Assembly: GCA_000004985.1 (NCBI GenBank)
Contig: GG738863.1
Strand: one strand, 5' to 3'
From: Naegleria gruberi
Taxonomy: Eukaryota
Length of the DNA stretch: 64,000 bases
Below, in pieces: positions 40,476 to 41,363 of this stretch (position 1 is its first letter; every line of letters starts with the position of its first letter). The notes beneath the pieces are model-generated. The model did not search any database, had not been told where the DNA came from, and saw nothing but the letters and a program-made list of their open reading frames with translations. The position numbers were made by a program, and so were the translations under genes.

Positions 40476-41363
40476 TTAACAAATGATACATTTCTTCTCA
40501 TTACCTTCCTTCTTTGCCTTCTTATCTGACAATTTTGTTGTGCTTGTTACTGCTGCTGCTTTAGGTTTATTATCCAAATTCTTCTTAATTTCCAAAACCA
40601 TTCTTGTGAAAGCTTCCTCAACATTGGCCGAAGATTTTGCACTCGTCTCAATGAATGGCATATCATACCGGTTTGCTAATTCTTCACCCTCTGAACGTTC
40701 AATTACTCTCTCAGAGGTTAGATCTGATTTACAACCAACCAAAAATTTTGTAATATCTACAGGAGCTGCCTTGTCAACTTCATTAATCCATTGACTGACA
40801 TTATCGAAGGAGGATTGGTCAGTGATTGAGTAGGCGATAAATACACCGTGTGCATCTTTGAAATAACCTGGATGCTGTTCGATAATTAGGTAAATAAACT
40901 TATAAGGTGGTGGTTGGTTGGTTGACTTACACTATTTCACAATTGTGAGCTATTTCACACCAAGAGTTGTAAAACACTTACATTTTCAATGCTTGACTAG
41001 GACTAATATCAAATATTAAGTAAATCATATGATAATGTCTTACTTACGCATTCCATATTTGTAATTTCAATGTTTTTCCATCCATTTCAATGGTACGAAT
41101 TTTAAAGTCAACTCCGAGAGCGGAGTAATAAGTATCTGAGAAGGTATTGTCCTGAGAAAGGGGTAAGTTTGTGTGAAATATGTGGTTTACATACAGAATA
41201 ACGAAGGAGAAGTGATTTCGTTCCAACTTTACGATCACCTAATATCATGTTTAGTTTAGTTTAGTTTCCCTACTTACCAAGGAAGAGTATTTTTACAAAA
41301 TAATCACTACAAAGTTCAAATCATTTCATTTCTGCAACAAATAACTTACTATGATGGATCCAT
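40476..41363 (-). CDS. Rab1/Rab8-like small GTPase homologue with degenerate nucleotide-binding motifs (pseudo-GTPase or recent pseudogene); at least 5 small exons
   Basis: Minus-strand exons read, in order:
- MDPS-Y, with the junction codon completed by the next exon
- [10 protein letters not shown]
- [14 protein letters not shown]
- [35 protein letters not shown], followed by TAA or GTAAGT
- [53 protein letters not shown]...[17 protein letters not shown]...KKCIIC
Compared with Rab1, G1 is GDRKVGTKS (consensus GDSGVGKS), G3 WDTAGQE reads WNA with no Gln, and G4 GNKCDL reads GCKSDL. G5 ETSAK and the RabF/RabSF regions are conserved. Confidence 0.6.

Follow-up and report, generated by a model that had tools for sequence, protein, structure and literature searches.

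A Rab1-like gene of Naegleria gruberi with altered nucleotide-binding motifs and a doubtful switch-II junction: decaying gene or pseudoGTPase?

Whether a Rab that has lost most of its nucleotide-contacting motifs is still made as a protein, or whether its gene is falling into decay, is the question raised by a Rab-type gene on the minus strand of a 64,000-nucleotide stretch of DNA (hereafter, the window; all positions refer to the whole stretch). A preliminary description of the locus, made from the letters of the window alone, had offered both a pseudo-GTPase kept for a scaffolding role and a young pseudogene, and had placed the gene in a dictyostelid context. The window belongs to Naegleria gruberi NEG-M, where it forms part of a 467,654-bp scaffold; its G+C content is 34%, and the flanking open reading frames are NAEGRDRAFT genes. 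The gene spans exactly 41363-40476, with the start ATG at 41363-41361 and the stop TAA at 40478-40476, and consists of six or more exons (Table 1). Exons were checked by translation and every GT/AG boundary was inspected; at the confident exons, the donors read GTAAGT or GTATGT and the acceptors YAG. The product of the joined exons was assigned to the Ras/Rab family, with its G-domain fold, by the Pfam Ras profile PF00071 (143.8 bits, E = 4.4e-42, cut-off 21.6). The Rab1-like match is thus far beyond chance, and the gene lies where it had been described. Ranking of solved structures against the product returned Rab1A/B (165-174 bits) ahead of Ypt1 (151 bits) and Rab8A (~140 bits), followed by Rab10 and Rab35. 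The neighbours are unrelated to the Rab gene, and among those in the window neither a second Rab in tandem nor anything suggestive of a functional gene cluster was seen.

Table 1. Features of the Rab1-like gene, of its switch-II gap and of neighbouring genes in the window
Feature	Position	Strand	Remarks
Exon 1, coding part	41350..41363	minus	MDPS plus 2 nt; agrees with the N-termini of XP_002668134.1 and of the Herman et al. model
Intron 1	41349-41307	minus	43 nt
Exon 2	41278..41306	minus	29 nt, strand beta1; aligns to YDYLFKLLLIG of canonical Rab1
Intron 2	41277-41239	minus	39 nt
Exon 3	41195..41238	minus	44 nt, degenerate G1/P-loop
P-loop codons	Thr 41221-41219; Lys 41218-41216; Ser 41215-41213	minus	In exon 3
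Exon 4	41048..41151	minus	104 nt; 34 residues plus GC; ends in phase 2
Motifs of exon 4	Ala for G2 Thr 41121-41119; Asn for G3 Asp 41052-41050	minus	RabF2 KLQIW intact
Gap (problem region)	40875..41047	minus	173 nt; ought to encode switch II (DTAGQERFRTITSS)
Strongest-signal micro-exons	41002-40982; 40949-40931	minus	21 nt (PSQALK) and 19 nt; GTAAGT paired with nearest YAG
JGI/NCBI micro-exon	40982..40991	minus	10 nt, CATTGAAAAT, (A)IEN; AAG acceptor, GTAAGT donor
Herman et al. micro-exon	40961..40991	minus	31 nt, 10 residues; reads through GTAAGT 40981 to GTGTGA donor 40960
Last exon	40476..40874	minus	399 nt including stop; GCKSD...ETSAK...KKCIIC
Motifs of last exon	G4 Cys TGT 40733-40731; SAK 40643-40635; CIIC 40490-40479	minus	
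Orphan protein	37860-39542	plus	560 aa
Two orphan ORFs	40347-39766; 42199-41567	same strand as the Rab gene	
Mitochondrial carrier fragment	42755-42357		
Other neighbours			MOSC protein; F-box protein without Rab domain; leishmanolysin-like peptidase

The gene product is recorded as XP_002678222.1 / EFC45478.1 / D2VCT8 ('ras family small GTPase'). This RefSeq model is mis-started, its ATG (41248-41246) sitting inside intron 2, and therefore lacks strand beta1; as a practical point, it should give way to a full-length model. A second copy, XP_002668134.1 (199 aa, on a scaffold of 2,126 bp), is 98% identical and is probably the other haplotype (allele) of the window copy. It carries the same altered motifs, its N-terminus is exactly the one reconstructed in the preliminary description, and the two copies differ at 4 amino acids in 199 (S to A, E to Q, T to I, A to T), all of them in the last exon. 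The Ras superfamily of Naegleria was curated by Herman et al. 2021 (BMC Biol 19:142, PMC8296547), and Additional file 10 (Table S8) of that work enters the exact sequence under the unclassified label 'Rab', gives it a gene model corrected by hand and has 'yes' in the column 'putative pseudogene?'. According to the same source (PMC8296547), the true N. gruberi Rab1 is XP_002673902.1, the present gene is without an orthologue outside Heterolobosea, and no N. fowleri gene was mapped as its one-to-one orthologue. The gene and its suspected death are already on record, in models of 2010 and in the curation of 2021, the latter in a supplementary table only; in the main texts of the literature, the accessions of the gene were not found, their appearance being confined to a supplement.

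At the level of sequence, four of the five G boxes (G1, G2, G3 and G4) are altered and only G5 is kept, as an intact ETSAK. Three altered motifs (G1, G3, G4) had been named before and were confirmed; the fourth had been overlooked, switch I having been taken as intact on the strength of a TIGVDF that does not occur in the sequence, where SALGVDF is found instead and the G2 Thr is replaced by Ala (YYSALGVDF). G1 reads GDRKVGTKS, as previously described, against the pattern GxxxxGK[ST]. The one-residue insertion that had been proposed for it was not borne out as a net insertion, the P-loop region aligning gap-free over 14 residues to GDSGVGKSCLLLRF, so that the change can be read either as a Thr gained and a Cys lost or as the replacements K to T, S to K and C to S. 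The simplest reading at the DNA level is the gain of a Thr codon and the loss of a Cys codon, two in-frame 3-nt events, which would put Lys/Ser out of register and leave helix alpha1 still in register. DTAGQ of G3 is absent: W is followed by N-A and then by the exon end with GTAAGT, and GQ is absent. In G4, Asn is replaced by Cys (GCKSDL). WNA with the following GTAAGT, GCKSDL, ETSAK and the CIIC tail are present in the DNA as the preliminary description gave them. Hidden exons encoding the canonical versions were not found, as no GxxxxGK[ST], DxxG or usable NKxD occurs in any frame of either strand between 40300 and 41700, and tblastn with canonical Rab1 as query detected no further Rab locus in the window. 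As judged from these motifs, the five-G-box set for GTP/Mg2+ binding and hydrolysis is incomplete, and the product would no longer be able to bind or hydrolyse GTP.

The Rab family motifs RabF1 to RabF5, as reportedly defined by Pereira-Leal and Seabra, read IGVDF, KLQIW, RFrsiT, YYRGA and LVYDIT. In the present gene, RabF1 is near-intact (LGVDF), RabF2 is intact, RabF3 is absent, and RabF4 (YFKDA) and RabF5 (IAYSIT) are both degraded. The C-terminus KKCIIC represents a putative prenylation motif of CxxC or CAAX-like type, as opposed to the commoner CC or CxC.

Divergence from canonical Rabs is considerable. The best identity to any Rab is 47-48%, at odds with the almost residue-for-residue likeness to Rab1/Rab8 that had been stated. 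As far as the sequence can tell, the gene is not a Rab1 orthologue (best identity 48%; Table S8 gives Rab1 to XP_002673902.1). For a comparison of sites, 19 canonical Rab1/8/35-type sequences with 51 invariant columns were used. Invariant residues were kept at 9 of 18 nucleotide-contact columns and at 18 of the 28 other columns that were ungapped (p = 0.37), or at 18/33 if all other invariant columns are counted (p = 0.78 against the contact sites). Radical replacements were found at 8 of 18 contact sites vs. 4 of 28 others (p = 0.038), and replacements at core positions were mostly conservative. The selective loss of catalytic motifs that had been claimed is therefore retained for radical changes and not for identity; with p between 0.04 and 0.8 depending on the measure, the signature is weak, not striking.

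Relatives were sought in two protein sets that jointly cover the ranges of 50-90% and <50% identity. An exhaustive phmmer search of 1.84 billion representatives returned nothing above ~50% identity except the protein itself, and in a 90%-clustered, word-indexed search of 5.8 billion proteins the next best match after the protein itself was canonical Rab1 at 48-50%. Scanning of metagenome contigs with the last exon yielded no relative either, so that no orthologue was found in these protein sets or contigs. The Naegleria-specific Rab Nfowleri986_g10824, quoted by Herman et al., was considered as a nearer relative and rejected (40% identity vs. 48% for Rab1 of unrelated eukaryotes).

How long the frame stayed open can be estimated from the 195 codons outside the gap, which contain no stop codon. 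A random substitution in this coding sequence has a chance of ~5% of producing a stop. Under the assumption of an ancestor with canonical G boxes, and ignoring indels (which would tighten the bound), zero stops are compatible, at P = 0.05, with a neutral phase of no more than K = 0.10-0.11 substitutions per site, corresponding to at most ~20% of residues replaced. To our knowledge, canonical G boxes are present in all working Rabs. As ~53% of residues differ, a neutral origin predicts ~10 stops, and the probability of observing none is 4e-5. Even at the neutral upper bound, at least 9 replacements among the 18 invariant contact residues would occur with p = 0.004. The open frame and the excess of replacements therefore place most of the divergence, and much of the motif loss, in a period of selection on the frame. 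These figures support a stage in which, for a certain time, the lineage would have been represented by a Rab-fold protein that bound nucleotides poorly or not at all.

The switch-II gap is the part of the gene that is difficult to read. All GT...AG combinations across it were enumerated with a minimum intron length of 35 nt. Exon 4, which ends in phase 2, could not be linked in frame to the last exon by any single intron; 17 stop-free routes with two introns are in frame, where the preliminary description had failed to find a phase-consistent splice from WNA to the last exon, and none of the in-frame routes restores DTAGQ or DxxGQ. The gap contains three consensus GTAAGT donors (41047, 40981 and 40930) and the acceptors TAG 41003, TAG 40997, AAG 40992, TAG 40950, TAG 40932 and CAG 40875. 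The 9-mer GTGAAATAG occurs there twice as a direct repeat, at 40958-40950 and 40940-40932, and one run is rich in CAACC. With 21 occurrences of GTAAGT on the minus strand in 64 kb, 0.06 would be expected per 173 nt; three in 173 nt are far beyond chance (P(>=3) = 3e-5). In all likelihood, the donors are signs of introns that exist or once existed. When each donor is paired with its nearest YAG, the strongest-signal micro-exons of Table 1 are obtained with introns of 45, 32 and 56 nt, the 45-nt intron (41047-41003) ending in GATATTAG, as does intron 2. The sum of 2 + 21 + 19 = 42 nt preserves the overall frame of this route, which nevertheless includes TGA at 40939-40937, so that the product would read WNAPSQALKISQL*NSHPGYF, and skipping of the 19-nt exon results in a frameshift. 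A message that uses the strongest signals of the gap is therefore non-productive. Both published solutions, by JGI/NCBI and by Herman et al., depend on weak splice signals. Elsewhere in the window, credible introns are 41-79 nt long and mostly YAG-ended. Relics of the lost segment were also looked for in the gap; the resemblances of PSQALK to (T)AGQERF and of the read-through of intron A to strand beta4 were indistinguishable from chance in AT-rich DNA and were discarded.

The full-length allele product with the JGI bridge was modelled with AlphaFold2 (mean pLDDT 81, pTM 0.75). The model has the complete set of six strands and five helices, alpha2 being reduced to four residues; core blocks have pLDDT values of 90-98, and low confidence is limited to switch I, switch II and the tail. 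Exon 2 coincides with strand E7-14, and the absence of beta1 made for a poor model of the mis-started RefSeq product. Top Foldseek matches of the full-length model were Rab1a/b and Rab8a (target-normalised TM 0.83-0.89). The prediction suggests that the fold could tolerate a short bridge, which speaks for feasibility, not for function.

Among the explanations weighed for these features, an assembly or annotation artefact would make the real gene canonical and attribute the odd motifs to sequencing errors or wrongly chosen exons. The mis-started NCBI model and the existence of three different gap models could be taken that way; the two independently assembled copies, however, share the altered G1, G2, G3 and G4, the changes fall within well-supported exons, and canonical motifs occur in no frame of the locus, so that we regard an artefact as hardly credible. 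The young pseudogene of the preliminary description, if taken as a recent duplicate of canonical N. gruberi Rab1/Rab8 that is dead and has lost its motifs by neutral drift, would account for the Rab1-type best matches, for the lesion at the switch-II junction and for the absence from other species. It is strongly disfavoured and appears very improbable, as the identity to any Rab is only 47-48%, the ~10 stops and additional frameshifts predicted in 195 codons are not seen (P = 4e-5 for the stops), and all three upstream introns have consensus sites and correct phases. The scaffold pseudo-GTPase fared differently: a past stage deficient in GTP binding is supported by the open frame, whereas the selective-loss signature is weak and the present-day state of the gene is doubtful. 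In its present-day form, this explanation is a functional pseudoGTPase of class i type, a nucleotide-free Rab fold translated from an mRNA with the 10-nt or the 31-nt micro-exon, which would be anchored to membranes by a lipid on CIIC and would serve a Rab1/Rab8-type partner as an adaptor or decoy that is constitutive and does not switch. It gains from the frame held open across ~53% divergence (unlikely under neutrality, P = 4e-5), from the replacement of 9 of 18 contact residues, more than a brief neutral phase would allow (p = 0.004), so that a loss of binding would have been tolerated under selection, from the enrichment of radical changes at contact sites (p = 0.038), from in-frame P-loop indels and the preserved Cys tail, from the possibility of closing both haplotypes in frame, and from a complete predicted fold with Rab1/Rab8 as best structural matches (TM 0.83-0.89). 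It suffers from a productive route that has to use the weakest splice sites of the gap while the consensus sites lead to a premature stop, from the lack of orthologues in the proteins and metagenomes searched and in N. fowleri (PMC8296547), from non-contact invariant residues that were lost as often, by identity, as contact ones, from the deletion of switch II and RabF3 as the main surface for effectors and regulators, and from the putative-pseudogene flag set by specialists (PMC8296547). We assign it an appreciable chance that stays clearly below even. Its most specific version, a living N. gruberi-specific, Rab1-derived class i pseudoGTPase that is prenylated, has a truncated switch II, is expressed via the 10-nt micro-exon and was caught soon after its origin, seems rather unlikely; if true, it would join a very small number of nucleotide-free pseudoGTPases derived from Rabs, and a protein that is still made would be a natural experiment on the Rab fold without its switch.

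With slightly more than even confidence, we lean towards a decaying gene, that is, an unprocessed pseudogene, perhaps still transcribed, which derives from a long-diverged, lineage-specific Rab1 paralogue; this agrees with the flag in Table S8. Decay is favoured because the only stretch that does not read cleanly is one for which a dead switch has no further use, because a message spliced at the consensus sites meets a premature stop and the in-frame routes need either a 10-nt exon with an AAG acceptor or a read-through to GTGTGA, because no orthologue was found, and because the two copies are already 2% apart at the protein level. On the other side, disabling lesions are absent from all five confident exons, TGA and frameshift arising only via the consensus sites of the gap; outside the gap, start, stop, frame, three clean and correctly phased introns and the Cys motif are intact in both copies, and both gene models admit an in-frame closure. 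The P-loop change, on its simplest reading, consists of in-frame indels that hold the register of helix alpha1, core replacements are mostly conservative, and AlphaFold2 builds a predicted G-domain that is complete; a gene that already has exons of 29 and 44 nt makes a 10-nt exon not absurd, and the label 'putative pseudogene' is a curator's judgement, not an experiment. As the order of events for a decaying gene, we infer the following, together with the present loss of function. A Rab1 paralogue of N. gruberi would have diverged for a long time with its frame kept open. The register of the P-loop Lys/Ser, the switch-I Thr, the whole DxxGQ/switch-II segment and the Asn of NKxD would have been lost, and GTP binding with them, largely before any inactivation, so that the intermediate would have been a GTP-binding-deficient protein of Rab fold. 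The part coding for switch II would then have been broken into the relics of two or three tiny exons, with consensus splice sites that may now yield a TGA-interrupted or frameshifted message. If the gene is decaying, it is one among several casualties of the large Naegleria Rab expansion and matters little; its value would be a modest one, as a worked example of a GTPase that loses nucleotide binding first, remains under selection for a while and then breaks down as a gene.

Comparison with known systems places the gene between several of them. With Rab1/Ypt1 it shares the best match in sequence and structure, the G-domain topology, KLQIW of RabF2, a near-intact RabF1, ETSAK, a similar length and a hypervariable tail ending in Cys. 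It differs from them in its identity of 47-48%, in the destruction of G1 to G4, in a switch II/RabF3 segment that is 6 residues shorter or replaced, and in the changes of YYRGAHG to YFKDAHG and of VYDVTD to AYSITD. Class i pseudoGTPases, i.e., those without nucleotide binding, include CENP-M, the pG1/pG2 domains of p190RhoGAP, the N-terminal domain of AAGAB and the microsporidian ArlEM (PMC5593906, PMC12490416, PMC13393502). Like these, the N. gruberi product has a predicted G-domain fold and G motifs with mutations that should prevent nucleotide binding. The known members are conserved across species, with expression or function shown or strongly inferred, and the case for a pseudoGTPase is usually built on cross-species conservation, as it was for ArlEM (PMC13393502); the N. 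gruberi gene, in contrast, is without an orthologue and has a doubtful splice junction. Atypical protist Rabs, such as trypanosome RabX1/RabX2 (PMC2748683) and the many F-box-Rab fusions of Naegleria (PMC8296547, Table S8), resemble it as lineage-specific paralogues with deviant canonical regions within a large protist Rab expansion. They have kept most G boxes or have gained extra domains, and carry no pseudogene flag, whereas the N. gruberi gene encodes a plain single domain with four G boxes lost. Unprocessed pseudogenes of small GTPases are matched in the retention of introns, the missing orthologue, the lost motifs, the curation as putative pseudogene and a junction that does not work when the strongest splice sites are used; unlike them, the gene has confident exons free of frameshift and stop, and an in-frame route across the gap is still there.

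In the switch-II gap of the degenerate Rab1-like gene, i.e., between exon 4 and the last exon, a 9-nt direct repeat (GTGAAATAG) was found together with an adjoining low-complexity run (CAACCAACCAACCACCACC), and the splice route through the consensus sites (GTAAGT donors and YAG acceptors) meets its in-frame TGA inside the second copy of the repeat. Repeat and run together suggest slippage or duplication in a region without constraint. When the exon-4 frame was continued through the following intron (41040-40985, -), a 17-residue stretch was obtained, which tblastn aligns to Rab1 beta4 HGIIVVYDVTDQE, and PSQALK, encoded by the 21-nt candidate exon of the same route, differs from (T)AGQE by one base per codon. 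These resemblances probably arose by chance in AT-rich DNA; they could be relics.

The intron density of the Rab locus (41363-40476, -) was unusually high for the window, with five or six short introns of 39-56 nt each within 888 bp, exons of 29 and 44 nt, and 5 of the 21 GTAAGT hexamers counted on the same strand across the whole 64-kb window.

The RefSeq/JGI model of the window copy (XP_002678222.1) starts at the ATG at 41248-41246 (-), giving the N-terminus MILGDRK..., and lacks strand beta1 because this ATG sits inside intron 2. For the second copy, the model (XP_002668134.1, from a 2,126-bp scaffold outside the window) begins at the equivalent of 41363, and the corrected model of Herman et al. 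(PMC8296547) starts at 41363. Four amino-acid replacements distinguish this copy from the one in the window, all within the last exon (TSERV/TAERV, GEELA/GEQLA, AFTRM/AFIRM, and KAAAVT/KAATVT); the corrected sequence designated “XP_002668134.1*” in the same publication actually has the residues of the window copy.

Features in the switch-II gap and other open reading frames (ORFs) in the window
Feature	Position	Strand	Remark
GTGAAATAG direct repeat	40958-40950 and 40940-40932	-	within switch-II gap
CAACCAACCAACCACCACC run	about 40925-40907	-	adjoins repeat
380-aa ORF	13566-12427	-	ATG to stop
Leishmanolysin-like M8 peptidase ORF	35082-36401	-	
Mitochondrial carrier fragment	42357-42755	-	
MOSC-domain protein ORF	45380-46495	-	
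Adenylate/guanylate-cyclase-like ORF	48521-49873	+	weak; score under Pfam cut-off
F-box protein ORF	50468-51913	+	without Rab domain

None of the five neighbour ORFs (peptidase, carrier, MOSC, cyclase-like, and F-box) showed a link to the Rab gene. For the 380-aa ORF, the sole source in the protein collection is a 2,575-nt ENA contig, with no entry from the NCBI N. gruberi proteome; this region may represent an unannotated or differently modelled gene.
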